64,000 nt of DNA, taken from assembly GCA_037142615.1 (NCBI GenBank), contig JBAXAI010000017.1, positions 1 to 64,000 on the forward strand, read 5' to 3'. Under the pieces are notes generated by a model. It did not search any database, had not been told where the DNA came from, and saw only the letters and a list, made by a program, of their open reading frames with translations. Position 1 is the stretch's first letter. Every line of letters begins with the position of its first letter. Positions 2,630-18,877 of this stretch are shown here, piece after piece. The translations under genes and the position numbers were made by a program. This stretch comes from Spirochaetales bacterium (GTDB taxonomy: Bacteria; Spirochaetota; Spirochaetia; JABEVK01).

Positions 2630-3839
2630 CGTGCCCCCCCGGAAGCCGGGGAACGCAGCGAGTCTTCTACCACGCGCTCGAGTTCCCCACGCAACGCTTC
2701 GGGAGCCTCGTCGATCAACTCAGCAAACAGGCCTTCGGAGATGATCAGACGGGCCTCATCACGAGAGAAGCCGCGGGCCATGAGGTAGAACACCTCGTCT
2801 TCGTTCACCTTGCCGGTCGTGGAACCGTGGGAGCACTTGACGTCGTTGGTGTCGATCTTGAGCTGCGGCAGACTGTCGGCCCGCGCGCCGTCGTTGAGGA
2901 TGAGGTTCTTGTTGCTGAGGTAGGCATCGGTGCCGGGGGCCGTCGGCGCGACTTCGATGAGGCCCTGGAAGATGGTCCGGGACCGGTCGCGAACGGCGCC
3001 CTTGTACAGCGCGTAGCTAGTCGTGTGTGGAGCGCGGTGCGTGGTGGCGATGCGCAGGTCCTTGTGCTGGTCACTGGTGCCGAAGTACAGGCCGTGGGTC
3101 TTGAGGTTGGCGCCTTCGCCGTCGAGTGAAAACTCGAAGCGGCTCTTCACGACGCCACCGCCGAGACAGGCCTGCCAGTGAAACAACTGGGCATCGCGCC
3201 CCAGGCGGGCGAAGCTGTGATCGAGCACAGCCGCGGAAAGGTTGTGGTTCTGCAGGTCGCACAGGCGAAAGTGCGCCCCGTCGTCGAGTTGCACGGTGGT
3301 TGCGGTGTGCGTGGTGAAGGCCGTGCCAGCCGGCGAGTCGCTGCGTATCACCAGCGACGCTTGGCTGAGCGACCCGGCATGAATAGCAAAGTGAGGCACC
3401 GACAGCACTTCTTTGCGCGTCTCGGTGAGGTGGATCAAGAACGGTTTGTCGGCGACGACCTTGGGTGGCAGCACCAGTACAGCGCCGAACTCGAGGTTCT
3501 GGTAGTGGTGCAACGAAGCCTGGGTATCGCAAAGGGCCTCGGCGATGGTGAGGAACTTGGTCACGCTGGCGGGGGCCTGGGTCAGCAATCCCAACTGCAC
3601 CCCGGCGGCCTTGAGCGCCGGATCGAGAACGACCCCGGTCAGCGCACCGTCGACAAACCTCAACTGACCGGCCCACTGGGCGTCGGCCTGGAGCGTTTCA
3701 GGTGCCGGAACTCGGCTTCCGACGGCTTTTGCTGCCGGCCGCGTCGCCCGGGTGTCGAGGGCAAAACGCGCCAGTTTGCTGCGGTGCCATTCCTCGTTGG
3801 TGCGGCCGGGCCACTCGAGAGCGGGGGCTTTGGTGGCAA

Positions 3840-3843
<4 letters not shown>
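2626..3843 (-). CDS. sufD: Fe-S cluster assembly protein SufD
   Basis: [17 protein letters not shown] and FYLMARG motifs; position between sufB and sufS. Confidence 0.92.
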
Positions 3844-5261
<1,418 letters not shown>

Positions 5262-5269
5262 GGGGCCTC

Positions 5270-6030
<761 letters not shown>

Positions 6031-6031
<1 letters not shown>

Positions 6032-6333
6032 CAGATGGGCATTCCTAGGGTGAGCTTGAGTTCTTCGGACATCATGGACTGGTTCCACGGCGGGTCCCAC
6101 ACGATGGTCGCGGTGACGTTTTGGGCTCCCGTGCGGGCCTTGACGGTCTCTTGCAGGTCTTCGACGAGCAGGTCACCCACGGGACACGCGGGACTGGTCA
6201 GGGTGAGCTCGATCTCGACGCGGTCTTCGTGCACATCGACCTTGTAGATGAGCCCCAGGTCGAGGATGGGTAGACCCAAGTCAGGGTCGAGAACTTCTCC
6301 CACGGCGGCGTAAACATCCTCGAGAGTTGGCAT
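6031..6333 (-). CDS. Metal-sulfur cluster assembly factor (DUF59/SufT-like)
   Basis: DPDLGLPILDLGLIY, TLTSPACP and WDPPW; first gene of the suf operon. Confidence 0.9.
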
Positions 6334-6344
6334 GGATTCCCCCT

Positions 6345-6383
6345 ATTCCTGACTATGGTACTCATATTCAGCGCCTCTTTCAA
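6345..6383 (-). promoter_or_regulatory. Sigma70-type promoter of the suf operon, overlapped by a candidate Rrf2/IscR-like operator
   Basis: Minus strand TTGAAA-N17-TACCAT; ATTCCTGACTATGGTACTCATATTC (6345-6369) resembles the type-1 IscR box TGAC-N7-(G/C)TC. Confidence 0.5.
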
Positions 6384-6459
6384 GATAGGTCTTTTAGGGA
6401 GTTTATTCAAGTGAGAACATGACTGGACGAGTGAGCTTTAGAATGGTATTTTGGGCCTC

Positions 6460-7035
6460 ATGCTGCCCCACGCTCTTGTCGTCCTTTGCCACCCCAACAC
6501 CTCCGGTTTCAATCAAGCCATCGCCGAAGCCGCCGTGGCCGCGCTGAAAAAAACCCACGAAGTGACCCTGCTCGACTTGTACCGCAGCGGCTTTGATCCC
6601 GTGCTTCCGTACAACGAGATTCCCCGCAAGTTCAGTTTCGACGAAAAGACTCTCGAGTTCATGGAACTGGTCAAGCGTTCGCAGACCTTTGTGTTTGTGC
6701 ACCCCGACTGGTGGGGTGGCCCGCCGGCGCTGCTCAAGGGCTTTATCGACCGCGTGTTCCGCCCGGGCGTTGCCTACGAGTTCGATGGCTACGCCTTCCT
6801 GTCGAACCAAAAGAGAGCTCTGCTCGAAGGCCGCAAGGCTGCTGTGTTCACCACCACCGACTACGCCAAACCCGCAGGAAGCTACCCGCCGGAAGAGATT
6901 TGGCGCACCAACGTGCTGGCGTATTGCGGCATCACCAACCCCGGCCTGCACACCTTTTTTGGCACCTACGAGTCGAGCTACGAGGCCCGCCACGCCTGGA
7001 TTGCCAGCGTGGGCGAGAAGCTGGCCCTGCTCTAG
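6460..7035 (+). CDS. Flavodoxin-fold NAD(P)H-dependent oxidoreductase (quinone reductase-like)
   Basis: HPNTSGFN, DLYRSGFDP and HPDWWGGPPALLKGFIDRV motifs. Confidence 0.9.
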   Translation: MLPHALVVLCHPNTSGFNQAIAEAAVAALKKTHEVTLLDLYRSGFDPVLPYNEIPRKFSFDEKTLEFMELVKRSQTFVFVHPDWWGGPPALLKGFIDRVFRPGVAYEFDGYAFLSNQKRALLEGRKAAVFTTTDYAKPAGSYPPEEIWRTNVLAYCGITNPGLHTFFGTYESSYEARHAWIASVGEKLALL

Positions 7036-7039
7036 CTGC

Positions 7040-7900
7040 CTACCGATCGAAAAGAGGAACCATTTCCTGCCGGGCAATGAGGGCGGCCATCGAGGCCTCG
7101 TCGGGCCGAACCGTGTAGCGTGAAGCGGCTGACAGCACTTTTGGCAGGACGTGAATGTCACCAATGGTGTTGAGAAACACGTCGGGATTGCCCAGAACCC
7201 AGTGGACGGCAAGGTCAATGTCGGTTTGCTCGACCAATGGCTCGTACCACGTGCTCGCAAAATGCGCCGAGCCAGTCCAGGGCCGACGGACCAACGACTT
7301 GATGGTCTGGACAGCGATGTTGCGGGCTTTGGCGAGCGCAAAAACCTCGCCCGCTTCGCTCAGGTACTGGGTTTTCTGCATCAGAATATGGCTGTAAGGC
7401 AACAGCACGGTGTCAAAGTCGAACCTCTCGAAGCTCCGTAGGTGCATGGCGGCGACCGTCCAATCGTGCCCGGTTACCCCGACAAAGCGGGTGAGGCCCT
7501 GTTCGCGGGCTTCGACGACGGCTTCGAGCGCTCCGTTTGGTGACAGGGCGGTCTTCCATTCGTCCGGGTCGACCAAATAGTGCAACTGGATCAGATCGAC
7601 ATTTGCCACCTTCAGGCGGTCGAGCGAGCGGTGGATCTGCTCCTTGGCGGCCTGATAGGTCCGCTGGTCGGTTTTGGTGGCCAAGAAGAAATCCTGGCGG
7701 TGTCGTGCCATCCACGGCCCGAGGCGAAGTTCGGAATCGCCATAACTGGCAGCGGTGTCGATGTGGTTGACCCCGAACTTCAGCAGGACTTCGAGGGTCC
7801 GGTCGGCCTCGTCCTGGGTCACGCTGCCCAAGGCGGCGGCACCAAAAATCGTGCGGCTGCTGAGGTGCCCGGTACGCCCGAAAACCGACTTTGGAATCAT
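7040..7900 (-). CDS. Aldo/keto reductase
   Basis: [36 protein letters not shown] and GVTGH. Confidence 0.92.
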
Positions 7901-7924
7901 GAGAGCCTCCTCACGGCGCGTGGC

Positions 7925-8392
7925 CTACAGCGTCAGGCCATTGACCAGCAAGTTCCCCAAAGCGCGGGAATCCTTGACTTCGTTGGAGGAGGAGGCCACC
8001 AGCGCGGCAGTCAGGTTGCCGCCCTTGAGCAAGTCGCCTTTGGGTCCGACGAGTTGGTAGCTGACGTGGTCAAGCAGCACTTCTTTTTCTTTGCCGGCCT
8101 TCCAATAGACGCGGAAGTACACCACTTTGCTGGCACCGTAACTGCGCGAGAGGTTCGACAGCCACTGCGCCGAGGGATCGACCGACTCGTCTTTCATCGC
8201 GGTGTCAAAGGCGATGTCGCCCTTGTCGAACAGTTTGTCGAACACCATGTCGACCAAAGTCTGCGAAACACCACTCTGAAAGCCATCCGCATTGGTGGCC
8301 GGGAGGCTCTGGGCGTGGCAGATGAGCACCGTCTCGGCGGTGAGTGAGGTGGCCAGCAGGGCCACGAGTGCGATTACAACAAGTCGTTTCAT
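7925..8392 (-). CDS. Hypothetical exported protein
   Basis: Signal-peptide-like N-terminus MKRLVVIALVALLATSLTA; RBS GGAGG upstream. Confidence 0.7.
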   Translation of the reverse strand: MKRLVVIALVALLATSLTAETVLICHAQSLPATNADGFQSGVSQTLVDMVFDKLFDKGDIAFDTAMKDESVDPSAQWLSNLSRSYGASKVVYFRVYWKAGKEKEVLLDHVSYQLVGPKGDLLKGGNLTAALVASSSNEVKDSRALGNLLVNGLTL

Positions 8393-8445
8393 CTTGTCCT
8401 CCGTTTGACTTCTCGGCAGAACCGCGATTGTGCTAAAATCAGAGT

Positions 8446-9024
8446 GTGAACTATTACGTGATCCGGGTAGAGCCCCAGCGGGAACAGGTGTTCAGCGAGC
8501 AAACGGCCAAGCAGCTCGACGACCCGGCGGTGCAGGTGATGTTCCCCCGCCGCAAGATGATCCACCTGCGCAAGGGCAAGCGCAAAGAGGTCGAGGTGGC
8601 TTTGTTCCCGGGCTACGTGTTCTTGCGCCTCGAGACTCCTCTGGAAGCCCCGCTCTACGACAAGCTCAAACGAGTTCCCGGTTTCGTGTTGTTCCTCAAA
8701 CAGGAGGGTGAGGCCCAGGAGGTCAAAGGCCCCGACCTGAAGCTGCTGAGCCACTTTCTGCGCTTCGGCGAGGTGGTGCCGGTCAGCACGGTGTGGTTCG
8801 ACGAAAACCAGCGCATCCGCGTGCATTCTGGCCCCATGGAAGGGCTCGAGGGCCAGGTGATCCACGTCGACAAGCGCAAGCGCCGGGCCAAAATAAGGCT
8901 CGACTTTGATCAGGGCGAGTTCACGATTACACTGGCGTTCGAGGTGCTCGAGAAAATGCCCGAAAGTCCAACTACGGCAGCAGGCGCGGCGAAGGCTGCA
9001 GGCGCTGCGAAGGGAGCGCCATGA
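8446..9024 (+). CDS. loaP: NusG-paralog transcription antiterminator (LoaP-like)
   Basis: NGN domain (YYVIRV...FPRRKMIHLRKGK...LFPGYVFL) and KOW domain (SGPMEGLEG...DKRKRRAKI); heads a glycan operon. Confidence 0.8.
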   Translation: MNYYVIRVEPQREQVFSEQTAKQLDDPAVQVMFPRRKMIHLRKGKRKEVEVALFPGYVFLRLETPLEAPLYDKLKRVPGFVLFLKQEGEAQEVKGPDLKLLSHFLRFGEVVPVSTVWFDENQRIRVHSGPMEGLEGQVIHVDKRKRRAKIRLDFDQGEFTITLAFEVLEKMPESPTTAAGAAKAAGAAKGAP

Positions 9025-10496
9025 CCCCTCCACCAGCCCGACGCACGATCATCCTCGGTGCCGGTTTTGCCGGCAAGGCGTTGGCCCGCGAAATCCAGGC
9101 CCGGATGCCCGACCGTCACCTGGTGGGCTTCTTGGACGACGACGAGGCCAAACAGGGCACCGAGGTCGAGGGGCTGCCTGTTCGCGGTCCCATCGCCCTT
9201 GTCAAGTCGCTGGCGGCCGAGTTGGACGAGGCCTTCATCGCGATTCCCAGCGCCACCAAGAACCAACTTCGCTCCATCTGGCAGACGCTGGTCGAAGCGG
9301 GCATCCCGAAGATCCAGATTCTTCCCGCAATCAGCCAGATTGTCGACGGCGAACCCCACCTGGTGCTCACACGCGAGATTGACCCGCAGGACTTGCTGGG
9401 CCGCAACCCCGTGCAGATTTCGCTGCGCCAAAGCCTGGCCTACCTGCAGGGCAAACGCGTGCTCATCACGGGCGCCGGGGGAAGTATCGGCAGCGAACTG
9501 GCGCGGCAACTGCTGTCGGGCGGTGCGGAACGGCTGTACCTCTACGGTCACGGCGAAAACAGCATCTACCAGATCGACAAGGAATTACGCGTTCTTCAGC
9601 AGGGCGGTGTCGGCGAAAGGGCCACCATCGTGCCGGTCATCGGTGATTTGAAGGACGAGGGGCACTTGAAGTTCCTCATCGAGCGCATGAAAGTTGACGT
9701 GATTTTCCATACTGCGGCGCACAAGCACGTGCCCCTGATGGAACTCAACCCCGTCGAGGCCGTGACCAACAACATTTTTGGTACAAGGCACCTCGTCGAA
9801 GCCGCGCTGGCTGCCGGTACCAAGAGGTTTGTGCTCATCAGCACCGATAAGGCCGTCGACCCGAACTCGATCTATGGCGTCACGAAGAAGCTGTGCGAAG
9901 ACATCGTGCTCGACGCGAACAAGCGGGCCGCGCCGGGCAACCATTTCATGGTGGTGCGGTTTGGCAATGTGCTGGGCTCGCGCGGCAGCATCATCCCCCT
10001 GTTCCGGGAGCAGATTCTGGCCGGTGGGCCGGTGACCATCACCGACAAGCGGGCCAGCCGCTACTTCATGACGATACCCGAGGCTTCCAGCTTGGTGTTG
10101 CAGGCTGGCGGCGTGGGCAGCGGCGGCAACCTGTACCTGCTCGACATGGGCGAGCCCATTGTGATTGAAGACCTCGCGGCGCAGATCATGAAGTTCTACG
10201 GCAAGCGGCCCCACCTCGACATCCAGTTTGAGTACATCGGTTTGCGCCCTGGTGAGCGGCTCGAGGAGAGGCTTTCGGCCGACGACGAAGAGCCCGTACC
10301 GACGGCGTACGCCCGCCTGAACCGACTGGTGCGTCCGGCCGTGAGCCGTGACCTTCGGCCGTTCTTCCGCCTGCTCGACCCGGTGTGCTTTTTTGACCCG
10401 GAGCAGCCGTCGCTGTATCGCAACCGCCAGCACCTGCGAACCGTTCTGCGAGCTTGGTGCCCCACTCTGGAAGAGAAAAATGAACCCGAATACTGA
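9021..10496 (+). CDS. Nucleotide-sugar 4,6-dehydratase (CapD/PglF-like, lacking the N-terminal membrane domain)
   Basis: TGAGGSIGSE, HTAAHKHVP, ISTDKAV, YGVTK and VRFGNVLGSRGS. Confidence 0.92.
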   Translation: MTPPPARRTIILGAGFAGKALAREIQARMPDRHLVGFLDDDEAKQGTEVEGLPVRGPIALVKSLAAELDEAFIAIPSATKNQLRSIWQTLVEAGIPKIQILPAISQIVDGEPHLVLTREIDPQDLLGRNPVQISLRQSLAYLQGKRVLITGAGGSIGSELARQLLSGGAERLYLYGHGENSIYQIDKELRVLQQGGVGERATIVPVIGDLKDEGHLKFLIERMKVDVIFHTAAHKHVPLMELNPVEAVTNNIFGTRHLVEAALAAGTKRFVLISTDKAVDPNSIYGVTKKLCEDIVLDANKRAAPGNHFMVVRFGNVLGSRGSIIPLFREQILAGGPVTITDKRASRYFMTIPEASSLVLQAGGVGSGGNLYLLDMGEPIVIEDLAAQIMKFYGKRPHLDIQFEYIGLRPGERLEERLSADDEEPVPTAYARLNRLVRPAVSRDLRPFFRLLDPVCFFDPEQPSLYRNRQHLRTVLRAWCPTLEEKNEPEY

Positions 10497-10638
10497 CAGG
10501 CCGCGCGGGCTACTGCGGCGCCCCCGGTCCGCGCCGAATCCGCGTTCGAGTCCTCACGTGTCAAAGACACGCTCCGGTTCTCACTTTGGCTTCGGCTTGC
10601 CCGCAGGCGTCCTCGCTACGCCCGGGCGGCCTGTCAGT
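10492..10638. repeat. MITE-like palindromic intergenic element with terminal inverted repeats
   Basis: 13-bp perfect inverted repeat ACTGACAGGCCGC (10492-10504 and 10626-10638), extendable to 19 bp with one mismatch; internal hairpin CGTGTC-AAA-GACACG. Confidence 0.75.
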
Positions 10639-10649
10639 GGGGGGCGACG

Positions 10650-11825
10650 ATGAACGACGATAGGTCCCCTATCCCTTTCAGCCGGCCAGTGCTGGGAGTG
10701 GAGGAAGAAGAGGCGGTGGTGGCGGTGCTGCGCTCGGGTTGGCTGACCACGGGCAAGGTGACGGCCGCGTTCGAGGCCGAGTTTGCAGCCTACTGCGAGG
10801 TACCGATCGCGCTGGCGGTGAACAGCGCGACAGCCGGGTTGCACCTGGCGCTCGAGGCGCTGGGCGTGGGTCCCGGCGACGTGTGTGCGGTGCCCAATTA
10901 CACCTTCACGGCGACGGCCGAAGTGGTGCGCTACCTCGGAGCCGAGGTGGCCCTGATCGACTGCGAAACCGACAGCGCCAACCTCGACATGGGGGCGTTG
11001 GAACGGGTGCTGGCAGCGCAGAAGATCAAAGTGGTCCTTCCCGTGCATCTGGCGGGCGAACCAGTGGATTGGCCACAGTTGAAGGCCCTGCAAGCGATGT
11101 ACGGCTTCCGTATCGTTGAGGACGCCGCGCACGTGTTCCCTGCCCGCTGCGACGAGGGCTATTACGGGGCGCTCGGCGACATCGGCGTGTACTCGTTCTA
11201 CGCCAACAAAAACATGACCACCGGCGAAGGTGGCATGATCGTCACCCGCAACCCCGAGTGGGCGGCCCGCATGAGGGTGATGCGCCTGCATGGCATCGAC
11301 CGCGACGCGTTTGAGCGTTTCACGAGCGTCAAGGCCACCGGCGCGGCGGCCAGTTGGGAATACGCCGTCGTCGCCCCGGGCTACAAGTACAACCTCACCG
11401 ACATCGCCAGCGCCATCGGCCGCGAACAGCTCAAAAAGGCCGCCGGGTTTTGGCGCCAGCGCCAGGAATTGGTGAAGGCGTATAACTCGCTCCTCGCTGG
11501 AGTTCCGGGCTTGGACCTGCCACGCGGGCGCGATGACCACGCCTACCACGTATATTCGGTGCTCTTGCCGCTCGGAACCGACCGCAGCGTGGTCGTTACG
11601 AAGCTCACCGAGCAGGGCATCGGGATTTCCGTACACTACATCCCTCTGCACCGGATGCCCTACTGGAAGACAACTTACTCGTTGCAGAGCAAAGACTTCC
11701 CAAACTCCGAAGCCCGTTTTTCCCGGACTTTGTCGTTGCCACTCTACCCGGCGCTCAGCCTAGCCCAGGTGGAGCGGGTGTGCCTGGCTCTGCGCCAAGC
11801 CCTTCACGGCTCCGGGGGGGTCTGA
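10650..11825 (+). CDS. DegT/DnrJ/EryC1/StrS family PLP-dependent sugar aminotransferase
   Basis: SGWLTTG, NSATAGLHLAL, EDAAH, SFYANKNMTTGEGG and GYKYNLTD. Confidence 0.94.
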   Translation: MNDDRSPIPFSRPVLGVEEEEAVVAVLRSGWLTTGKVTAAFEAEFAAYCEVPIALAVNSATAGLHLALEALGVGPGDVCAVPNYTFTATAEVVRYLGAEVALIDCETDSANLDMGALERVLAAQKIKVVLPVHLAGEPVDWPQLKALQAMYGFRIVEDAAHVFPARCDEGYYGALGDIGVYSFYANKNMTTGEGGMIVTRNPEWAARMRVMRLHGIDRDAFERFTSVKATGAAASWEYAVVAPGYKYNLTDIASAIGREQLKKAAGFWRQRQELVKAYNSLLAGVPGLDLPRGRDDHAYHVYSVLLPLGTDRSVVVTKLTEQGIGISVHYIPLHRMPYWKTTYSLQSKDFPNSEARFSRTLSLPLYPALSLAQVERVCLALRQALHGSGGV

Positions 11826-13939
11826 TGGCCCGCAAGCGAAAAGGAACCCGGGACCCGCTGTTCGATCCGGATCCGCGGCTGTTCTCGCCGCCACTCGCCG
11901 AGTGCTGGTTTGGCGTCTGCCTGCGCGCGCCGGTGTCGCACGGCCGGGTCGTCGGGCTGGTTCACCCGCCGCTGCCCGGCAATTTCGTGTTGGTGGGCCC
12001 GGGGCAGATTCCCGGTAACGAGAGTTTTCAGGTCCTCAAGGTCAAGCTTCCCCTGCTACCCGAACATGTGCATTACGTAGGGGAACCTTTGGCCCTGCTG
12101 GCTGGCCCCGATGAGCACACGGTGAGGGCCTTTGCGGCGCAGTCCCGCTTTGTCATTGTCCCTTCGGGGCCAGAACCGGGCCCCCACGAACAGGCGGCGC
12201 ACGGGCATACCCGCACGGTGCAGCGGGGGGCGGTTCTCGAAACGCGAGACTTGCCTGCGGACTGCCTGGTGGTCGAAAGCACCACGAGTTCGGGGGCCCA
12301 GGATCATGGACGTTTTGACGCGCTTGAGGTGCTCGCCAATGTGACCGAAGTCGCCATGATCCGCGTCAAGTCACAGTGGCCGGCCCACGTGGTCCAAAGC
12401 GTCGCCCGGGCGCTCGACCTGGATCCGGCTCAGGTTCAGGTCATGGCCACGACCACGGCCGGCCTCACCGGCAGTCAGGTCTGGTTCCCGTCGCTTTACT
12501 CGGTGTACGCCGCGGTGCTGTCGAAGGCCTGCGCTCACCCGGTTCTGATGCGCCTCACCCGCCAAGAAGACTTTCACCACTCGCCCAAGAGGCCAGAATG
12601 CAGAACCAAGCTGCGCTCGGTGGTGACCCGCGACGGCCGCATCCTGTCGTTGCAAGCCGACGTGGTCGTGCAGGTGGGTGCTTGGCCGGTGATGGCCGAA
12701 GAGCTGCTCGACCGCACGCTGGTCGGACTCCTGACACCCTACTATCTGGAGCACTTTGAGGTCACGGGCACGGCCCAGGTCTCTGCCACCCCGCCCCGAG
12801 GTCCGGTGGGGAGTAACGGCGAAGCCATGGGCCTCTTTGCGCTTGAAAATCATGTACAGGACCTGTGCCGCGAGCTCGATTTGGATCCTATCAAGTGGCG
12901 CATGGCGAACGCGGTGGCCAAGGACCAGCCTTGGTTCACCGGGCTGGTCCCCAAAGCGGAAAACCCCCTGAGGCCCCTGATGGCCGAGGCCGCGCGGGTC
13001 ACGGACTTTTCACGCAAGCAGGCCGCGTTCGAACTGCTGGCTCAAGACCGATCGCGCCTGCTGGAAGAGGCCTTGCCGCTGCGGGGAATCGGGGTGGCTT
13101 CCGGCTTTCAGGGCAACGGCTTCTTAGCCGGTGGCAGCCCCGTTCACTTGGAAGGACGTCTCGAAGAGACCGGTCAGTTGTCGCTCTACATTCCCCTGGT
13201 GACGCCCAACGCGCGGCAAATCGAGCTCTGGAAGCAAAGCGCCGCTGCGATCCTCCAGCTTTCGGTCGACAACGTGCGCATCTGCCCCGTCTTCTCGGGA
13301 GATCACCCCACTGGCGGTCCGTCGTTTGCGTCGAGGGCCTTCGAGATCATCCCCAGGCTGCTGTTGCAAACCTGCGAGGCGCTGGCCCAGAAGCGCTTCC
13401 GCCAGCCGCTGCCGCTCACGGTTCGTTCGGTGTACCGCCGCAACAAAGGCCCGGCGTGGGACGCTGAGCAGTTCACCGGCCAGCCGTTTTTGTCGCTGAC
13501 CTGGTGCGCTGCCGTGGCCGAAGTGCAAATCATCCCCCACAGGGCCGAGGTGGAAATCGTGCGGCTGTCGCTGGTTGTCGATGCCGGTCCGCGCATCGAC
13601 GAATCGGCCGCGCGAAACGCCCTGATCGAAGGCGTCCAGATGGCCGTCGGCTGGACCCTCACCGAAGCGCTGGGCTGGGACCAGGGCGGGGTCGATACCG
13701 GACTGGGCCGCTACCGGTTGCCGGGGCCGCGGGAGTTGCCACCCATCGAAATCCGCTTCCTCGAAAATGCCAACCAGACGAGGCCCCACGGTCTGGGAAA
13801 TCTGGGAGCTCATGCCGTAGCTCCGGCGCTTCTGGGCGCCATCCGGCAGGCGCTCGGCCAAGCCTCGTCGCTGAGTTCCATCCCCGTTTCGCGGAAAATG
13901 CTCGACGAGGCCTTGAGGCTGGGAGGCAACGCGCGATGA
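11825..13939 (+). CDS. Xanthine dehydrogenase/aldehyde oxidase family large-subunit homolog with a degenerate Mo-site
   Basis: Hammerhead-like N-terminus (LRAPVSHGRV...VHYVGEPLAL), VVDAG and GVQMAVGWTLTE; canonical GGGFGGK, FRGFG and KGxGE motifs altered. Confidence 0.82.
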   Translation: MARKRKGTRDPLFDPDPRLFSPPLAECWFGVCLRAPVSHGRVVGLVHPPLPGNFVLVGPGQIPGNESFQVLKVKLPLLPEHVHYVGEPLALLAGPDEHTVRAFAAQSRFVIVPSGPEPGPHEQAAHGHTRTVQRGAVLETRDLPADCLVVESTTSSGAQDHGRFDALEVLANVTEVAMIRVKSQWPAHVVQSVARALDLDPAQVQVMATTTAGLTGSQVWFPSLYSVYAAVLSKACAHPVLMRLTRQEDFHHSPKRPECRTKLRSVVTRDGRILSLQADVVVQVGAWPVMAEELLDRTLVGLLTPYYLEHFEVTGTAQVSATPPRGPVGSNGEAMGLFALENHVQDLCRELDLDPIKWRMANAVAKDQPWFTGLVPKAENPLRPLMAEAARVTDFSRKQAAFELLAQDRSRLLEEALPLRGIGVASGFQGNGFLAGGSPVHLEGRLEETGQLSLYIPLVTPNARQIELWKQSAAAILQLSVDNVRICPVFSGDHPTGGPSFASRAFEIIPRLLLQTCEALAQKRFRQPLPLTVRSVYRRNKGPAWDAEQFTGQPFLSLTWCAAVAEVQIIPHRAEVEIVRLSLVVDAGPRIDESAARNALIEGVQMAVGWTLTEALGWDQGGVDTGLGRYRLPGPRELPPIEIRFLENANQTRPHGLGNLGAHAVAPALLGAIRQALGQASSLSSIPVSRKMLDEALRLGGNAR

Positions 13940-14421
13940 AAGTGCATCTGATTCTCAATGGTGACGACGTGACCGTCACCGCCGAGCCCCGCGAGTCGCT
14001 GTTTGAAGTGCTGCAAAGCGAGGCGGGCCTCTTTGCCGACAAAGTCTGTTGCGACCAGGGCGACTGCGGCCGCTGCCATTTGCTGCTCGACGGCCGCGAG
14101 GTGCCGGGTTGCCTCATCCCGTTCTTCCAGGTGCGCGAGCGCGAAGTCGTTACCCCAGAAGGCTTTCGGAACACTGAGGAATACCGCCTCTTCCGGACCC
14201 TGCTCGACGACGAGGGTCTGGTCCCCTGCCCCGAATGCACCGAAGTCCAGGTGTTCCACCTTTTCTCGTTCCTGGAGCAGTTCCCTCAGGCCGACGCTGA
14301 GGAATGCCGTCTGGTGATCGGAGAAATCCCCTGCCGCTGCGGCAGCCGGCCCGTGCTCGAACGCGGGGCCCGTCGTTGGCTCGAAGCCCGCAAGGAGGTC
14401 CCGCGTGGCCGCCGCCGTTGA
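13936..14421 (+). CDS. [2Fe-2S] small subunit of the XDH/CoxS family
   Basis: CDQGDCGRC-x11-C, then CPEC and CRC; ATGA overlap with the upstream gene. Confidence 0.87.
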   Translation: MKVHLILNGDDVTVTAEPRESLFEVLQSEAGLFADKVCCDQGDCGRCHLLLDGREVPGCLIPFFQVREREVVTPEGFRNTEEYRLFRTLLDDEGLVPCPECTEVQVFHLFSFLEQFPQADAEECRLVIGEIPCRCGSRPVLERGARRWLEARKEVPRGRRR

Positions 14422-15244
14422 AGTCGCCCAGCCTCTGGTCTACAGCCCCCGAACGTTGAGTGAGACCTTGGCGTTTCTGTCGGCCAACCCCGGCTGCCAG
14501 ATCATCGCCGGCGGTACTGCGCGGAATCCCGAAGTGGCCGTCGCGGTCAGTCTGCACCAGCTCGACGAACTCAAGAGGATCACCTTGGGTGAACGGGCCC
14601 TCGACCTGGGCGCGGGGGTTACCTTGGCGGCCCTGCTGGCGCTGCCCGATAGCCAGGTTCCCCGCGTGCTCAAAGAGGCACTGCGGTCCATCGGGACCTC
14701 GGCCCTGCGCAATCTGGCCACGTTGGGAGGAAACGTGTGTCAGAGGGGGTTCTTCGGTGACCTGGTTCCGGTCCTGTTGTTGCTCGGCGCGCAGTTTGAG
14801 CTTCGCGGGCAGCGAACCTCGCGCTGGGTGGCGGCGCAGGACTTTGGCGAGCACGGCCACGTCGAACTCAGTGGGGGCGAAGTCTTGGTGCGGGTTCGCC
14901 TGCCGCTCGAAGACCCTGGCGTGCATTTCTACCAAAAAATAGGAAGCTTCCGTTCGGCCTGGGACGAACGCTTGTCGATGGTCTGTCTCGCAACCCCCAA
15001 GAACGGGCTGATTTCACGGTTCCGCTTGGTTTTTTCGCTGCCCCAAAGCGGCTTGGTACGCCACCGCGACCTCGAAGCCGACCTGACCGGACAAAGGCTC
15101 CCGCTTTCGGCCCGCGAACGTGCCACGGTGTTGGAGCGGCTGGACGAGTACCTGGGTCACCTGCCACTTCCGGCCAGCGTCTTCCAGCGGGAGAGGATTT
15201 TGCACTTGGCGCGCTGGGTCCTCACCCGCTTGGAAGACGACTAA
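14405..15244 (+). CDS. FAD-binding medium subunit of the XDH/CoxM family
   Basis: IIAGGT, IGTSALRNLATLGGN and downstream GD motif. Confidence 0.87.
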   Translation: MAAAVEVAQPLVYSPRTLSETLAFLSANPGCQIIAGGTARNPEVAVAVSLHQLDELKRITLGERALDLGAGVTLAALLALPDSQVPRVLKEALRSIGTSALRNLATLGGNVCQRGFFGDLVPVLLLLGAQFELRGQRTSRWVAAQDFGEHGHVELSGGEVLVRVRLPLEDPGVHFYQKIGSFRSAWDERLSMVCLATPKNGLISRFRLVFSLPQSGLVRHRDLEADLTGQRLPLSARERATVLERLDEYLGHLPLPASVFQRERILHLARWVLTRLEDD

Positions 15245-17037
15245 GCCTCGAGCTCTTGCTTTTCACGTTCGTCCAGGAACTGCTCGGTATACAGCTCAAA
15301 GTAGCGCCCCCGGCGGGCCATCAGTTCGCTGTGGTTGCCGTCCTCGAGGATGCGTCCCTTTTCGAGCAACAGGATGCGGTCGGCGCCACGCACGGTTGAA
15401 AGCCGGTGGGCGATCAGGAAGCTCGTTCGCCCGTGGAGCAGTTTCTCGACCGCCAACTGAATCAGGCGCTCGGTTTCGGTATCGACCGAGCTGGTCGCTT
15501 CATCGAGCAGGAACAACGCCGGATCGGCCAGCACGGCACGGGCCAGGCTCACCAGCTGTTTCTGCCCCGTCGAAAGGCGGCTGCCCCCTTCTCCAATGTC
15601 AGTGTCAAAACCCTTTTCGAGCTCCTGGATGAACTCCGTCGCCGACACTTGCTTGGCGGCCTCTTCCACCTCAGCGTCGGTGGCCGTGAGCCTGCCATAG
15701 CGGATGTTGTCGCGGACCGTTCCCCGAAAGAGTTGGGGGGTCTGGAGCACGTAGCCGAGGCGCGAATGCAGCCAGTGCTGACTCCGATCGCGGGTGTCGA
15801 CCCCGTCGATGAGCACTTGCCCCGAGGTTGGTTCGTAAAAGCGGCAAAGCAGATTGATGATGGTGCTCTTGCCGCTTCCCGTCTCGCCGACCAAGGCGAT
15901 GCTCTGGCCCGGCTCCACCACGAGCTGGAACCGTTCGAGGATGGGTTGCCCCGGCACGTACGAAAAGCTCACCTCGTGAAACTCGACCCGTCCCACCAGC
16001 GGCGGTTCGTTCGAGGTGTCGAGTCCAGGACGGTCGCGGATCTCGGGCTCGGCCTCCACCAGCGCCAGGAGTCGCTCCGCAGAGGTCTGGGCCTGCTGCA
16101 ACTCACCCAGCACTCTCGCCAGCTCCCGCACGGGTTCAAAAAACTGAACCGTGTACGAGGCAAACGCTACCAGCGTGCCCAGGCTGAGCGCCCCGGCCAG
16201 CACCATGGGCGCGCCAAAGCTGAGGGCCAGCGCGGTGCCGAGACTGGCCAGCGTGAGCACCACCGGCAGGTAGAGCGCGCCGAACCAAGCCGAGCGCACC
16301 GACGCGTCGCGCAGGTTACCGGCCCGCACGCCGAACTCGCGGCGGTTGCCGTCTTCGCGTCCGAGCACTTTGCTGCTGCGTGCGCCCTGAATCCCCTCCG
16401 AAAACGCCGCCGAAACCTCGGATCCCAGTTTTTTCACCTGCCGGTACCACGTGAGCAGCGTCTTTTGGAACACCACGCTCACCCAAGCCAGCGGGGGCAG
16501 CACCGACAACGTGATGGCGGCCAGCAACGGATTGAGCACAAACAGCACGATGGTGATGGCCAGCATCATGGCTGCCCCCCACACCATGTCGACAATGCCC
16601 CACGAGATCACCTGCCCCAAGCGGGTGGCGTCGCTGGTCAGGCGGGCCAAAATCCAGCCGCCGGGGGTCTTGTCGTAATAGCTGAACGACAGATCCATCA
16701 GGCGGTCGAACCCGGCCTGCCTCAAGTCGTGGATCAGCCCCTGCTCGATCCAGCCGGCCACCCAGATCAGTGACCACACCAACGCACACTGCGCCAGCAT
16801 GGCACCGCCGTACAAAGCCAGAAAGCCTTCGATTCCCTTCATCGACCGAGGAACCAAGAAGGTGTCCACAGCCACTTTGGTGAGGTAAGGGAAGCTCGTG
16901 TCGATGGCACCGACCGCAAGCATCACCAGGCCGAGCGCGACCAGGTGCTTTGTGTATGGCTTGGTGAACCTCAACAGTCCTTTCCACAGCTTCCAGTTCC
17001 AACGGGTCTGGAAGGCCTCGTCTTCCCAGTCGCTCAT
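15241..17037 (-). CDS. ABC exporter, fused permease/ATPase (heterodimer half)
   Basis: Transmembrane domain plus GETGSGKST, LSTGQ, LLDEATS and AHRLST; ATG at 17037 overlaps the upstream stop. Confidence 0.93.
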   Translation of the reverse strand: MSDWEDEAFQTRWNWKLWKGLLRFTKPYTKHLVALGLVMLAVGAIDTSFPYLTKVAVDTFLVPRSMKGIEGFLALYGGAMLAQCALVWSLIWVAGWIEQGLIHDLRQAGFDRLMDLSFSYYDKTPGGWILARLTSDATRLGQVISWGIVDMVWGAAMMLAITIVLFVLNPLLAAITLSVLPPLAWVSVVFQKTLLTWYRQVKKLGSEVSAAFSEGIQGARSSKVLGREDGNRREFGVRAGNLRDASVRSAWFGALYLPVVLTLASLGTALALSFGAPMVLAGALSLGTLVAFASYTVQFFEPVRELARVLGELQQAQTSAERLLALVEAEPEIRDRPGLDTSNEPPLVGRVEFHEVSFSYVPGQPILERFQLVVEPGQSIALVGETGSGKSTIINLLCRFYEPTSGQVLIDGVDTRDRSQHWLHSRLGYVLQTPQLFRGTVRDNIRYGRLTATDAEVEEAAKQVSATEFIQELEKGFDTDIGEGGSRLSTGQKQLVSLARAVLADPALFLLDEATSSVDTETERLIQLAVEKLLHGRTSFLIAHRLSTVRGADRILLLEKGRILEDGNHSELMARRGRYFELYTEQFLDEREKQELEA

Positions 17038-18767
17038 AGCAACCATTCCTTTTGCAGGGCGTTCTGCAGTTCGGCCATGCGCCGGTACAAACCCGGCTGG
17101 GCCGCCAGTTCGGCGTGGGTGCCCTGTTGCACCAGACGGCCGTGTTCGAGCACCAAAATCACGTCGGCCTGCGCCAAGGTCGACAAGCGGTGCGAAATCA
17201 AAATGATCGTCCCAGACGACTTGCGGCTCGCCAAACTCGCCCGGATCTGCGCATCGGTGTGGTTGTCGACGGCCGACAGCGAGTCGTCGAAAATCAGCAC
17301 CGGTTTGGGCCTCACCAGCATCTGCGCGATGGCCGTGCGCTGGCGCTGACCGCCCGACAGGGTCACCCCGCGCTCCCCGAGCAGGGTCTTGTACCCTTCG
17401 GGAAAGCCGGTGATGCCCTCGTGGAACCGGGCCAGCGTCGCCGCATGAACGATCTCGTCGGCATGCGGCGTTTCGTGCGCCAGCCCGATGTTGTCGCCGA
17501 TGGTTTTGGCAAATAACCACGGCTCTTGCAAAACCAGTCCTACCTGAGACCTCAGCTCTCGTTTGCTCAGCGTGGCGAGCTCGCGCCCGTCGAGAAGGAT
17601 TTCTCCTTCGTAGGGTGACAGCCCTGCCAGCAATTGCACCAACGTCGACTTGCCGCTGCCCGTGGGCCCCAACAACGCTGCGGTTTGGCCAGCCTCGATG
17701 ACGAAGTTCAGGCCCTCGAGAATGGTGCGGCCTTCTTTGTGCACGCTCACGTTGCGAAACTCGAGCCGGCCCTTCCATTCGGTGCCCGGGAACACTTCCC
17801 GTTCGCCGAGCTCCTCGGTGGGCTTGGCCAAGATTTCCTTGACCCGAGTCCACGACACCTTCGCCTTTCCGAGGTCGGTGAGCACGCGGCCCAACTGACG
17901 GATGGGCCACACCAGCATGCCGGTGAGCGTCATGAACATGACAACCGTGCCTGTGGTGACCAGGCCAGCATTCACAAACACGATTCCGGCCGTCAACACA
18001 ATGCCGAGTTGGAGCAGCGACAGCACGTTCACCAGCCCCCAATAGTAGGCGAACAGGTTGATCAGTTTGCGGGTCACCTGCCGGTAGTGGTCGTTCTCGG
18101 CGCCGAATCGTTGCCGCTCGAAGTCTTGACGGGCAAAGGCTTTAACGACCCGCACCCCCGTGATATTTTCTTGCAGGATGCCCGACAAGCGCCCTTCGGA
18201 CTCGTCACTTTCCTTGAAAGCCTTTTCGACCTGATGGAAGAAGGCGTAGCTAAAAATGAGCACCACCGGAAGCAAGGGCACCGTGAACCAGGCCAACCGC
18301 GGTTCCAGAGCAAACAGCATGGGGAGTATCCACAGGGCCTGCAGACTGCTGTTGACCAGCTCGGGGAACTGAAGACCAGCCAACCGCCTCAACGTATCGA
18401 CATCGGAGGTGCAACGCTGAACCCAGTCACCGGTGGGAGCTTTTTGCAGCTCATCCCAGGTCAACAACTGAAGGTGACCGTACAGCTGGTTGCGAAGATC
18501 CTTGGCAGCGTCTTCGGCGACCCGCTGGGTGCCGTACCCCGACAGAAAGTTCAGGCCGGCCGCACCGAAGCTGAAGGCGAACATGCAGGCGATGGCCCAG
18601 GCGATGCTGTTGACCCAGCTCAAGGGACCAGGAAGCGTCCAAGCGGCACCGCCGAGCCCGCTATCAAGAATGGACCGTAACAGCAACGGTGGCAACGAGG
18701 AAAGGATGGTCCCCGCAGCGGCAGCCAACAGCGCCGCGACGTACAGGGGCAGGTATTTACGAAACAT
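17034..18767 (-). CDS. ABC exporter, fused permease/ATPase (heterodimer half with degenerate Walker B)
   Basis: GPTGSGKST, LSGGQ, IFDDSLS and SHRLST; RBS GGAG before ATG at 18767. Confidence 0.93.
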   Translation of the reverse strand: MFRKYLPLYVAALLAAAAGTILSSLPPLLLRSILDSGLGGAAWTLPGPLSWVNSIAWAIACMFAFSFGAAGLNFLSGYGTQRVAEDAAKDLRNQLYGHLQLLTWDELQKAPTGDWVQRCTSDVDTLRRLAGLQFPELVNSSLQALWILPMLFALEPRLAWFTVPLLPVVLIFSYAFFHQVEKAFKESDESEGRLSGILQENITGVRVVKAFARQDFERQRFGAENDHYRQVTRKLINLFAYYWGLVNVLSLLQLGIVLTAGIVFVNAGLVTTGTVVMFMTLTGMLVWPIRQLGRVLTDLGKAKVSWTRVKEILAKPTEELGEREVFPGTEWKGRLEFRNVSVHKEGRTILEGLNFVIEAGQTAALLGPTGSGKSTLVQLLAGLSPYEGEILLDGRELATLSKRELRSQVGLVLQEPWLFAKTIGDNIGLAHETPHADEIVHAATLARFHEGITGFPEGYKTLLGERGVTLSGGQRQRTAIAQMLVRPKPVLIFDDSLSAVDNHTDAQIRASLASRKSSGTIILISHRLSTLAQADVILVLEHGRLVQQGTHAELAAQPGLYRRMAELQNALQKEWLL

Positions 18768-18877
18768 GGAAGTTCTCCAAAAGAAACCAGGACACCTGGC
18801 AAAAGGCATCGCGAAACCGACAAAAGGGGGAAAGGACTACTGGGAGGCCACACCGAAGCGTTGGCCCACTTGTGCCG

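Follow-up and report, generated by a model that had tools for sequence, protein, structure and literature searches.

A LoaP-led spirochaete operon combines amino-sugar genes with a xanthine dehydrogenase-like complex that has lost its Moco-contact motifs

Results

Genes and features of the locus

The window analysed here is a stretch of 64,000 nucleotides from a Spirochaetales bacterium (contig JBAXAI010000017.1). Between positions 8446 and 15244, its plus strand carries six co-oriented genes, which encode LoaP, a CapD/PglF-type 4,6-dehydratase, a DegT aminotransferase and the large (XL), small (XS) and medium (XM) subunits of a complex related to xanthine dehydrogenase (XDH). An earlier sequence-only reading had named the same products (LoaP-like, dehydratase, DegT, XDH-type large, [2Fe-2S] and FAD subunits) and had reported overlapping stop and start codons at most junctions. 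Our profile matches agree with these identities, and four of the five junctions were found to overlap: LoaP/CapD by 4 nt, DegT/XL by 1 nt (XL starts with the ATG at 11825), XL/XS by 4 nt and XS/XM by 17 nt. Only CapD and DegT are separated, and here the coordinates give a gap of 153 nt. No acetyltransferase, hydrolase or synthase gene was found within the operon. The six genes appear to form a single operon headed by loaP, and this arrangement is conserved in the spirochaete class of the window.

Table 1. Features of the operon and of its divergent neighbour
Feature	Position	Strand	Remarks
'c9' family small secreted protein, 155 aa, signal peptide	7925..8392	-	divergent, conserved loaP neighbour
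LoaP-type NusG paralogue (processive antiterminator), first operon gene	8446..9024	+	GTG start; NF033641
Soluble CapD/PglF/WbpM-type nucleotide-sugar 4,6-dehydratase, 491 aa	9021..10496	+	PF02719 1.4e-103
Long inverted repeat that occupies the spacer between CapD and DegT	10492..10640	+	rod-like RNA hairpin predicted
DegT/PseC/PglE-type PLP-dependent sugar 4-aminotransferase, 391 aa	10650..11825	+	PF01041 1.1e-106
XL, XDH/CODH-family large subunit, 704 aa, all Moco-contact motifs lost	11825..13939	+	MoCoBD_1 1.4e-34; MoCoBD_2 1.4e-19
XS, small subunit, 161 aa, two [2Fe-2S] Cys sets	13936..14421	+	pucE 6.3e-19
XM, FAD-binding medium subunit, 279 aa	14405..15244	+	FAD_binding_5 PF00941 8.5e-30

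The first gene product scored 135.6 bits against the LoaP model (cut-off 125). Its NusG N-terminal domain was recovered with an E-value of 8.4e-11 (PF02357) and its KOW domain with 8e-4. Thus, the characteristics of the LoaP family (curated NCBIfam score, NusG N-terminal plus KOW domain) are all present, although the KOW score of 19.6 bits lies below its cut-off of 22.3. Of the 93 loci that could be evaluated, 59 have LoaP ahead of the cluster, and LoaP is reported to occur in Spirochaetota (PMC12691694). Like LoaP of Bacillus velezensis, the window protein exceeds the model cut-off and heads a biosynthetic operon. The dfn leader of that organism involves an UNCG-type hairpin and a terminator. 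In contrast, the operon of the window is short, and its loaP has almost no 5' leader, the GTG start following 6 nt past a TAAAAT; no terminator-like site was found on the plus strand of this leader. When we searched up to 250 nt upstream of loaP for UNCG hairpins whose stem comprises 5 bp or more, 61 of 62 loci lacked such a structure and one contained it.

An HMM derived from 49 c9 proteins detected the divergent neighbour of loaP (E 3e-10) as well as its orthologues in loci L003-L008, and in about 49 loci c9 is encoded divergently from LoaP. The c9 protein of the window yielded no Pfam match. An Atlas structure search pointed to an LpoB/CsgG-like fold, which we regard as a lead only.

The inverted repeat between CapD and DegT has a predicted fold of -82.8 kcal/mol (z -3.2), which involves an inner GGC-UUCG-GCU stem-loop but no U-tail. 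Within the window, its 13-nt arms were found at this site only. The repeat is not conserved, and in L003 the tblastn matches of CapD and DegT are only about 20 nt apart.

Amino-sugar enzymes

In CapD, a Rossmann-like N-terminal domain precedes the catalytic SDR domain. Its sequence identity between loci varies between 53 and 88%, and it contains both the Polysacc_synt_2 domain and the catalytic STDKAV block, which is conserved in 87 orthologues. The enzyme scored 177.8 bits against the PseB equivalog model (cut-off 407.75), and the cut-off of the FnlA equivalog was likewise not reached. Similarly, DegT remained with 342.6 bits below the cut-off of the PseC model (423.5), and its ArnB score was 286.9. 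The Schiff-base Lys187 in SFYANKNMTTGEGG is retained in 95 of 96 DegT orthologues, and a conserved Cys set was not seen among these 96 sequences. Judged by family membership, CapD and DegT would convert a nucleotide-HexNAc, most likely UDP-GlcNAc, to a 4-amino-4,6-dideoxy-hexosamine nucleotide. Such nucleotides are the entry intermediates of bacillosamine or nonulosonic-acid glycans. The pairs PglF/PglE (bacillosamine) and PseB/PseC (pseudaminic acid) carry out the same two first steps, and they also combine a PF02719 dehydratase with a DegT aminotransferase that uses a Schiff-base Lys. However, the window pair scores below the PseB and PseC equivalog cut-offs, its CapD is soluble and has an extra N-terminal domain, and the two genes are followed by the XDH-like trio instead of an acetyltransferase, hydrolase or synthase.

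Fold and motif losses of the large subunit

The AF2 model of XL reached a pLDDT of 89.5 and a pTM of 0.91, and its top Foldseek match was 1jro_B (E 3.9e-50, TM 0.85, 19% identity). From this model, we are confident that XL adopts the XDH fold. Motif substitutions were read from a phmmer alignment to R. capsulatus XdhB and from MAFFT alignments. Here, we found AGLTGSQV in place of GGGFGGKE (with Val at the position of XdhB Glu232), VGSNG in place of FRGFG and HGLGN in place of KGxGE, and the GQG motif is lost (PNARQ). The catalytic Glu of KGxGE, which we take to be Glu730 of the R. capsulatus enzyme and Glu1261 of the bovine one, is gone in the window. Replacement of these four motifs had been proposed before, and in the XdhB alignment none of them was intact; GQxxGG, which was not on the earlier list, is lost too (NA..E in the window). 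Five separate Moco-contact segments have been lost together. The earlier account of XL requires correction at two positions, since XL still has the SQ-motif Gln that corresponds to XdhB Gln197 (SQWP) and also an Arg aligned with XdhB Arg310 (LLDR).

We compared residue frequencies between 98 canonical homologues and 109 members of the degenerate clade that includes XL. The frequencies decreased from 1.00 to 0.01 for F215, to 0.02 for G216 and to 0.00 for R329, Q599 and G602, and from 0.96 to 0.06 and 0.16 for G462 and G464, respectively. Many clade members retain the Glu (GIGELP), the SQ Gln and an ASR-like segment. Several loci have K, R, L or M instead of the SQ Gln, and the subclade of the window no longer has the Glu. 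Other XL residues are conserved specifically in this clade (W185 0.98, W220 0.93, R397 1.00, K398 0.99, E566 1.00). A new conserved Cys/His cluster was not detected in the clade, C517 alone reaching 0.90.

Electron-transfer subunits and complex assembly

For the small subunit, the sequence-only reading had listed all eight Fe-S cysteines, and we located them at positions 39, 44, 47, 59, 98, 101, 133 and 135. Each of them is retained in 97-104 of 105 orthologues. The Pfam matches to Fer2 and Fer2_2 are below the cut-offs. The AGGT and RNxATxGGN motifs reported for the medium subunit are likewise present (IIAGGT, RNLATLGGN) and widely conserved (G36 in 100, T38 in 95, R102 in 96, T106 in 99, G109 in 101 and N110 in 90 of 103 orthologues). 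Taken together, about 100 orthologues that share only some 25-35% identity show 90-100% conservation of the Fe-S cysteines and of the FAD motifs. At the level of sequence, these data indicate that the sites of two [2Fe-2S] clusters and the FAD subunit have been kept.

Structure prediction of XL with XS gave a complex score of 0.78 (best control 0.00). Among solved complexes, 116 of 157 attain this mark, as do 2 of 215 mismatched pairs, but the result may be a product of the likeness to solved XDHs. The prediction runs agreed in at least 90% of the contacts, and the partner pLDDT was at least 81. On the XL side, the predicted interface is made up of the former Moco segments (residues 211-215, 461-464 and 594-606). 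XS contributes residues 94-101 and 125-140, which surround its second cluster. In the model, the remodelled XL pocket is positioned directly against the second [2Fe-2S] cluster of XS.

Phylogeny and Moco synthesis genes

All 118 related XL copies (80 loci plus 38 matches in same-class genomes) were degenerate, and their ORFs are intact. In the tree, the degenerate clade is monophyletic (109/109, support 0.88), and its sister consists of six canonical spirochaete sequences (parent support 1.0). Its path length is about 2.5-fold that of this canonical sister group, and the copy in genome G159 was too divergent for recovery by the profile search. The state of XL is a clade property of single origin and not local decay, and the intact ORFs and newly conserved residues speak for ongoing constraint. 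At the level of sequence, XL, XS and XM are descendants of a true molybdenum hydroxylase.

MoaC is missing from 35 of the 38 same-class carrier genomes (completeness 98-100%), where related genomes are non-independent samples; by family, it was found in 0/28 (f2), 0/3 (f3), 0/2 (f6) and 0/1 (f7) carriers and in 3/38 overall. MoeA_N was detected in none of five f2 carrier genomes tested. Genus g31 provides a contrast: a match was found in 22 of its genomes and MoaC in 22, and the two sets are identical. The canonical form was checked in G189. Thus, the degenerate trio is not confined to Moco makers but occurs mostly in genomes without MoaC. In family f29, a trio with canonical motifs occurs in spite of lacking MoaC (0/7) and MoeA_N (0/5), so that missing genes alone are no proof of missing Moco use. 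The window's own genome encodes MoaA, MoaC and MoeA together with a canonical XDH, and Moco would therefore be available there. Molybdenum independence, as suggested by the sequence-only reading, is in line with motif loss in 118/118 copies, the absence of MoaC and MoeA_N from most and all of the tested carriers (35/38 and 5/5), and the kept Fe-S and FAD sites. From these sequence data, XL, XS and XM very probably function independently of Moco and no longer bind it.

Linkage to the sugar genes

In 92 of the 107 loci that could be evaluated, DegT immediately precedes XL; the other 15 lack this arrangement. Among the neighbours of XL we counted CapD in 76/98, XS in 105/109 and XM in 101/103 loci, and all five enzyme genes in order in 62/85 loci. 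In most such loci, XL shares only about 20-33% identity with XL of the window. CapD-DegT-XL-XS-XM are also found, at about 84-90 kb, in G102, a same-class genome that consists of a single contig of 1.14 Mb. Here, the operon contains the sole strong DegT and CapD, and NeuB is present once. In the canonical sister clade, sugar genes do not adjoin, so that the tree places the loss of Moco and the recruitment next to CapD/DegT at the same point.

Other relatives show a different arrangement. XL directly follows LoaP in L041, L092 and L124, and XL-XS-XM stand alone in L027, L032, L040, L048, L073, L075 and L128. In G235, the trio comes directly after LoaP, and a separate PseB-like/DegT pair is located about 7 kb from a NeuB match. 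The reduced genomes G145 and G245 (family f6) keep LoaP-XL-XS-XM amid unrelated genes but have no CapD-type gene (best PF02719 match 50 bits) and no NeuB, and G245 also lacks a strong DegT. This argues against strict coupling. Hence, the linkage in relatives that the sequence-only reading had expected holds for the majority of loci but is not strict.

Discussion

The XDH/CODH family is, to our knowledge, regarded as obligately molybdenum-dependent. R. capsulatus XdhAB, B. subtilis PucCDE and T. aromatica HcrABC (4-hydroxybenzoyl-CoA reductase) share with the window trio the three-subunit layout of large, small and medium subunits, the fold of the large subunit, the two [2Fe-2S] Cys sets and the FAD motifs. 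The predicted interface between large and small subunit resembles that of the solved enzymes, and canonical spirochaete members form the direct sister. In contrast to these enzymes, the window trio lacks the Moco-contact motifs and the catalytic Glu, most of its carriers are devoid of Moco synthesis genes, it evolves faster and it resides inside an amino-sugar operon behind LoaP. We found no previous description of this Moco-less XDH-like complex in the literature.

XL, XS and XM probably constitute a Moco-independent flavo-Fe-S heterotrimer that serves as redox partner of the amino-sugar pathway. The three subunits would still assemble in the XDH-like manner, and electrons would pass between FAD on XM and the remodelled XL pocket through both [2Fe-2S] clusters of XS. 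This pocket adjoins the second cluster and has gained clade-specific Trp residues. Going by synteny, the most likely role of the trio would be that of a dedicated redox partner, with the amino-sugar nucleotide or an intermediate further along the route to a conserved spirochaete glycan as its substrate. The best candidate for this glycan would be the nonulosonic-acid glycan of the periplasmic flagellins, and T. denticola FlaB has been described to bear an N-acylated nonulosonic acid. The glycan role put forward by the sequence-only reading (reductase or scaffold) and the flagellin target are candidates suggested by gene order and by this T. denticola literature. A possible precedent for a flavo-Fe-S module in deoxy/amino sugar chemistry is CDP-ascarylose synthesis, in which the DegT-fold sugar enzyme E1 (AscC) is fed single electrons by the flavin-[2Fe-2S] reductase E3 (AscD). 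In AscC, His replaces the Lys and the enzyme carries its own Fe-S cluster. We use this system as a 'works like' analogy, since the window DegT keeps Lys187 and has no conserved Cys set, and its putative reductase is of the XDH rather than the E3 type. On balance, we favour this combined reading of operon and redox partner, and coupling of the trio to the sugar pathway, for which synteny is the evidence, appears somewhat likely.

Alternatively, the trio might be an oxidoreductase or redox sensor of the Moco-free flavo-Fe-S type with a task of its own, sharing with CapD and DegT no more than the LoaP-controlled transcript. The core unit would then be LoaP-XL-XS-XM. The loci in which XL directly follows LoaP, the seven stand-alone trios and the f6 genomes are consistent with such a function, and we know of no amino-sugar route, including the Pse, Leg and bacillosamine routes, that needs an external redox partner. 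However, DegT adjoins XL in several families despite the low XL identity, its stop codon overlaps the XL start in the window, and the recruitment beside CapD/DegT coincides with Moco loss. We consider this explanation rather unlikely but the most serious competitor.

A role as pseudoenzyme or non-catalytic scaffold, in which the trio organises or stabilises the sugar enzymes or another partner and has kept its cofactor sites for folding only, is improbable. The accelerated evolution of XL, the divergent G159 copy, the free variation of former active-site residues and the lack of a new Cys/His cluster would fit such a role. However, conservation of the Fe-S cysteines and FAD motifs at this low overall identity is hard to explain without electron transfer, and XL has its own strongly conserved clade-specific residues.

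Divergent binding of Moco or of another pterin/metal cofactor by XL, with the usual hydroxylase or reductase activity, would be conceivable from the Moco genes of the window genome, the Gln, Glu and ASR-like segment kept in many clade members and a cofactor uptake that is possible in principle (f29), but the joint loss of five contact segments and the lack of MoaC and MoeA_N in the carriers make it highly implausible.

The clade of the flavo-Fe-S trio is ancient, monophyletic and class-wide; its Mo site has been discarded and its electron-transfer chain preserved, and most carriers are unable to make Moco. The XDH architecture would thus be reusable for other chemistry, and the existing label 'xanthine dehydrogenase / CO dehydrogenase Mo-binding subunit' would mislead for treponemes and their relatives. 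As a more speculative and by itself unlikely extension, the former molybdopterin (di)nucleotide pocket may have been rebuilt for a nucleotide-diphospho amino sugar or a derivative (W185, W220, R397/K398), with the Fe-S/FAD chain performing one-electron chemistry on the sugar nucleotide. If true, this pocket would define a new class of metal-pterin-free 'XDH-like' sugar oxidoreductases, needed for a treponeme flagellin or envelope glycan and kept even in a 1.14-Mb genome. Since the operon holds the sole strong DegT and CapD of this minimal genome, the trio would be a testable candidate for an unassigned step in spirochaete glycan synthesis.

The operon in the window

The operon (window 8446-15244) consists of six co-oriented genes, which encode the NusG-paralogue antiterminator LoaP, a 4,6-dehydratase (CapD), a sugar aminotransferase (DegT) and the large (XL), [2Fe-2S] small (XS) and FAD-binding medium (XM) subunits of a complex of the xanthine dehydrogenase (XDH) type. 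Neighbouring genes overlap at four of the five junctions (by 4, 1, 4 and 17 nt), so that the six-gene order with overlaps at most junctions, which had been claimed in the sequence-only reading, was borne out by the coordinates. Only CapD and DegT are separated, by a spacer of 153 nt. Since the N-termini of the XL orthologues read MA(R/K)KK, the start of XL was assigned to the ATG at 11825 and not to the GTG at 11780. The 3' end of the operon is set by two convergent ABC exporter genes. For DegT, the nearest specific model was PseC, but the score of 342.6 bits was under the cut-off of 423.5.

Genes of the operon and adjacent features (window coordinates)
Feature	Position	Strand	Support
LoaP	8446-9024	+	NCBIfam NF033641, 135.6 bits (cut-off 125)
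CapD/PglF-type 4,6-dehydratase, soluble	9021-10496	+	PF02719, 1.4e-103
DegT aminotransferase	10650-11825	+	PF01041, 1.1e-106
XL	11825-13939	+	MoCoBD_1, 1.4e-34; MoCoBD_2, 1.4e-19
XS	13936-14421	+	pucE, 6e-19
XM	14405-15244	+	FAD_binding_5, 8.5e-30
Two ABC exporter genes, convergent on the operon	15241-18809	-	
c9 family small secreted protein, divergent from loaP	7925-8392	-	HMM E 3e-10

The spacer between CapD and DegT (window 10492-10640) is a single long inverted repeat (fold -82.8 kcal/mol, z -3.2), which contains a UUCG-loop hairpin and lacks a U-tail. Its arms occur nowhere else within the window and the repeat is absent in L003, the locus of the closest relative. It may function as processing or attenuation site. 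Upstream of loaP (window 8405-8448), the GTG start sits 6 nt past a TAAAAT box, no Shine-Dalgarno sequence precedes it, and a TTGACT element is located 23 nt 5' of the box, a spacing that is too long for standard sigma-70. The loaP mRNA may be leaderless or its promoter may be non-standard. LoaP is documented in Spirochaetota (PMC12691694). In contrast to the LoaP system of B. velezensis, a UNCG leader hairpin was present in only one of 62 loci, and an Rfam search over window 7500-15800 gave no match below E 0.4. Near-identical DNA to window 8300-15400 was found in freshwater/lake metagenome runs of 10 studies, and one of these samples may be that from which the window derives; no RNA data set was listed among the matches.

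The large subunit has lost its molybdenum site

To read the motifs of XL, we used an alignment to R. capsulatus XdhB together with MAFFT alignments. We take the relevant XdhB residues to be Gln197, Glu232 and Arg310, and the alignment numbering agrees with this assignment. The motifs that contact the molybdenum cofactor (Moco) in canonical large subunits are not intact in the window: GGGFGGKE reads AGLTGSQV, with Val at the position of Glu232, FRGFG reads VGSNG, KGxGE reads HGLGN, and both GQG and GQxxGG are absent. The Gln of the SQ motif and the Arg aligned with Arg310 are retained. XS carries all eight Fe-S cysteines and XM both flavin motifs (AGGT, RNLATLGGN). Taken together, the earlier description of replaced Moco motifs beside preserved Fe-S and FAD sites was right in each particular tested. 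According to the AF2 model (pLDDT 89.5, pTM 0.91) the XL fold is intact, and the best Foldseek match of this model was 1jro_B (E 3.9e-50, TM 0.85, 19% identity).

Degenerate large subunits form a clade

In a protein search with XL, 7997 candidates were scored, of which 160 were relatives at E ≤ 1e-5. Identity with the window copy was 51-70% for about 21 clusters and 29-32% for five clusters, and the relatives at ≤ 27% were mostly canonical. A one-genome-per-species scan gave 290 XL relatives, from which the best 80 loci were used; 79 of these 80 were named as spirochaetes, Treponema, Breznakiella, Gracilinema and Rectinemataceae among them, and the remaining one carried no label. An XL profile search matched 102 of 301 Spirochaetota genomes, 38 of them in the class of the window (families f2 28/28, f3 3/3, f4 2/2, f6 2/2, f7 1/1, f8 2/2). 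Since the bit score by itself failed to tell degenerate from canonical copies, the motifs were read in all matches. Here, we found that all 118 copies from the best 80 of 290 loci and the 38 class matches were degenerate at GGxFGGKE, FRGFG and GQG. The ten matches that were inspected from other classes of the phylum carried canonical motifs, the divergent L101 and L102 only partly; XS adjoined XL in eight of the ten and XM too in seven of these eight, and sugar genes adjoined XL in none of the ten. The profile search has false negatives: at 1e-10 it missed XL in G159 and G352, both from the family to which the window belongs, and these copies were recovered by protein search. Both loci contain the whole operon, and their CapD proteins are still 61-63% identical despite very divergent large subunits (L139 of G159, 633 aa and 55 bits by tblastn; L140 of G352, 23% identical).

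For comparison of residue frequencies, we excluded partial reading frames shorter than 640 aa as well as canonical proteins with a length outside 650-1000 aa, which left 109 degenerate and 98 canonical sequences. Canonical versus degenerate frequencies were 1.00 versus 0.01 for F215, 1.00 versus 0.02 for G216, 1.00 versus 0.00 for each of R329, Q599 and G602, and 0.96 versus 0.06 and 0.16 for G462 and G464. The degenerate copies share residues of their own, namely W185 (0.98), W220 (0.93), R397 (1.00), K398 (0.99), P530 (0.99), E566 (1.00), W582 (0.91) and C517 (0.90). We also considered that XL had acquired a new metal cluster but rejected this option, since there was no Cys/His cluster signature and C517 is the only conserved cysteine.

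In a FastTree LG+gamma phylogeny, rooted arbitrarily on P0063, the 109 degenerate sequences were monophyletic (support 0.88) and their sister group consisted of six canonical spirochaete sequences (parent node support 1.0). Mean path length was 1.58 plus a stem of 0.56 for the degenerate clade versus 0.76 plus 0.09 for the sister group. Monophyly, canonical sister and longer paths indicate that the site was lost once, at the base of the class, and that faster yet constrained evolution followed.

Linkage to the sugar genes

Gene order was quantified from tblastn coordinates of the 118 degenerate loci, and each count covers the loci with enough flank, which are related and not independent. DegT lies directly upstream of XL in 92 of 107 loci, so that the subunit genes are linked to the sugar genes in relatives as well. 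CapD is found upstream within 6 kb in 76/98 and LoaP upstream in 59/93, while XS (105/109) and XM (101/103) follow downstream. All six genes stand in order in 46 and the five enzyme genes in 62 of 85 loci. This order holds while XL identity drops to about 20-33% in most loci. In the single-contig genome G102 (1.14 Mb), which has one gene for the nonulosonic-acid synthase NeuB, no strong member of either sugar-enzyme family was present besides the operon copies, which scored 335 bits (DegT) and 365 bits (CapD). As exceptions, XL directly follows LoaP in L041, L092 and L124, the three subunit genes stand alone in L027, L032, L040, L048, L073, L075 and L128, and XL occurs by itself in L067 and L081. 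The small f6 genomes G145 and G245 (1.5-1.7 Mb) carry LoaP, XL, XS and XM amid a TRAP transporter and pyrB, and neither a CapD-type gene nor NeuB was found in them.

DegT retains its Schiff-base Lys187 in 95 of 96 orthologues, which marks it as an aminotransferase and not as an E1-type dehydrase. A model in which the Fe-S chain feeds DegT and DegT works as a PMP-dependent 3-dehydrase (E1/E3) was rejected on this ground and because no conserved Cys set was present.

Flanking genes

Two layouts recur. In the first, SecA and the divergent genes c11 and c9 precede the operon, and QueA, RuvB, RuvA, RuvC and YebC follow on the opposite strand. The genes c9 and c11 are retained in divergent orientation to loaP in some 40-60 related loci. 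For c9, an LpoB/CsgG-like fold is a lead; c11 is long, of low complexity, with a weak SPOR domain at its end, and it was not seen in the window. In the second, Breznakiella-type layout, XM is followed co-directionally by genes for a MarR-like protein, a 3-dehydroquinate-synthase-like protein and the 525-aa protein c24 (L016, L018, L046, L053, L058, L061, L062 and others; L062 is on the chromosome of Breznakiella homolactica RmG30). This set was observed in 18-21 Breznakiella/Treponema-type loci, sometimes with a second CapD next to it, and may constitute a pathway extension. Additional glycan genes in the conserved flanks were rejected, since the neighbours are the housekeeping genes QueA, RuvABC, YebC and SecA and the envelope-type c9/c11, or the MarR-like set. 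NeuB lies near the subunit genes in nine loci only. In genus g3, an S41 peptidase and a CAAX protease are inserted between CapD and DegT.

Just upstream of the operon in the window (1370-7900, - strand) are the SUF Fe-S assembly genes SufS, SufD, SufB and SufC and a small reading frame (6031-6333), the N-terminus of which we presume to be DUF59/SufT-like. Next to this SUF operon are reading frames for a protein resembling flavodoxin (6451-7035) and for an aldo-keto reductase (7040-7900).

Moco synthesis genes in carriers

Most carriers of degenerate XL lack Moco synthesis genes. MoaC (PF01967) was detected in three of the 38 same-class carriers (G110, G288, G296), with 0/28 in f2, 0/3 in f3, 0/2 in f6 and 0/1 in f7 at genome completeness of 98-100%, and MoeA_N in none of five f2 genomes from five genera. 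By contrast, XL matches and MoaC coincided fully in genus g31, both occurring in the same 22 genomes, and the one copy checked (G189) was canonical. In the genome of the window itself, contig 2 encodes MoaA, MoaC and MoeA and contig 43 a canonical XDH, and there the argument for a lost molybdenum site rests on the motifs. Family f29 has a canonical-motif trio of subunits (checked in G038, genus g41, locus L090 on contig C1: GGAFGGKE, FRGFG, GQG, GELP), yet MoaC was found in 0/7 and MoeA_N in 0/5 of its genomes, which makes the gene-content argument weaker when it is taken alone. In f29 the cofactor may be scavenged, its synthesis genes may have escaped detection, or the same decay may be at an early stage.

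The electron-transfer chain and assembly of XL with XS

The Fe-S and FAD sites are retained across the clade. Each of the eight XS cysteines is kept in 97-104 of 105 orthologues, and for 103 XM orthologues we counted G36 in 100, T38 in 95, R102 in 96, T106 in 99, G109 in 101 and N110 in 90, while orthologues of both proteins are only about 25-35% identical to the window copies. Complex prediction for XL plus XS gave a score of 0.78 (best control 0.00), and the runs shared at least 90% of contacts with a partner pLDDT of at least 81. In the calibration, 116 of 157 solved complexes attained the mark of this prediction, as did 2 of 215 mismatched pairs; these counts hold only roughly because our own alignments were used. 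Since XDH complexes have already been solved, this result indicates likeness and is no proof of binding. The modelled interface involves the former Moco segments of XL (211-215, 461-464, 594-606) and residues 94-101 and 125-140 of XS, round Cys98, Cys101, Cys133 and Cys135. With such an interface, the remodelled XL pocket would still face the second [2Fe-2S] cluster.

Proposed role

The observation of a clade without molybdenum site and of its operon is strong. The literature searched, with most subscription journals outside its scope, contained no description of a Moco-free XDH-type clade or of this operon, and nothing relevant was found in it that joins Treponema with XDH, molybdopterin or Moco. 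As to the similar gene order suggested for T. pallidum in the sequence-only reading, no paper in this literature mentioned TP0077 or TP0078, or named TP0080 together with Treponema pallidum.

A link of the three subunits to flagellin is circumstantial. T. denticola FlaB bears a 2-methoxy-4,5,6-trihydroxy-hexanoyl nonulosonic acid (PMC13439194), and the figure legends of a preprint name the synthase orthologues of T. pallidum and T. denticola among those assayed (bioRxiv 10.1101/2022.03.25.485807). NeuB was useless as co-occurrence marker and does not discriminate, since it is near-universal in the phylum (287 of 301 genomes).

We suggest that CapD and DegT would form a 4-amino-4,6-dideoxy-HexNAc nucleotide. 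XL, XS and XM would assemble and electrons would pass between the FAD and a newly formed ligand site of XL, and the substrate of this complex would be part of the CapD/DegT pathway.
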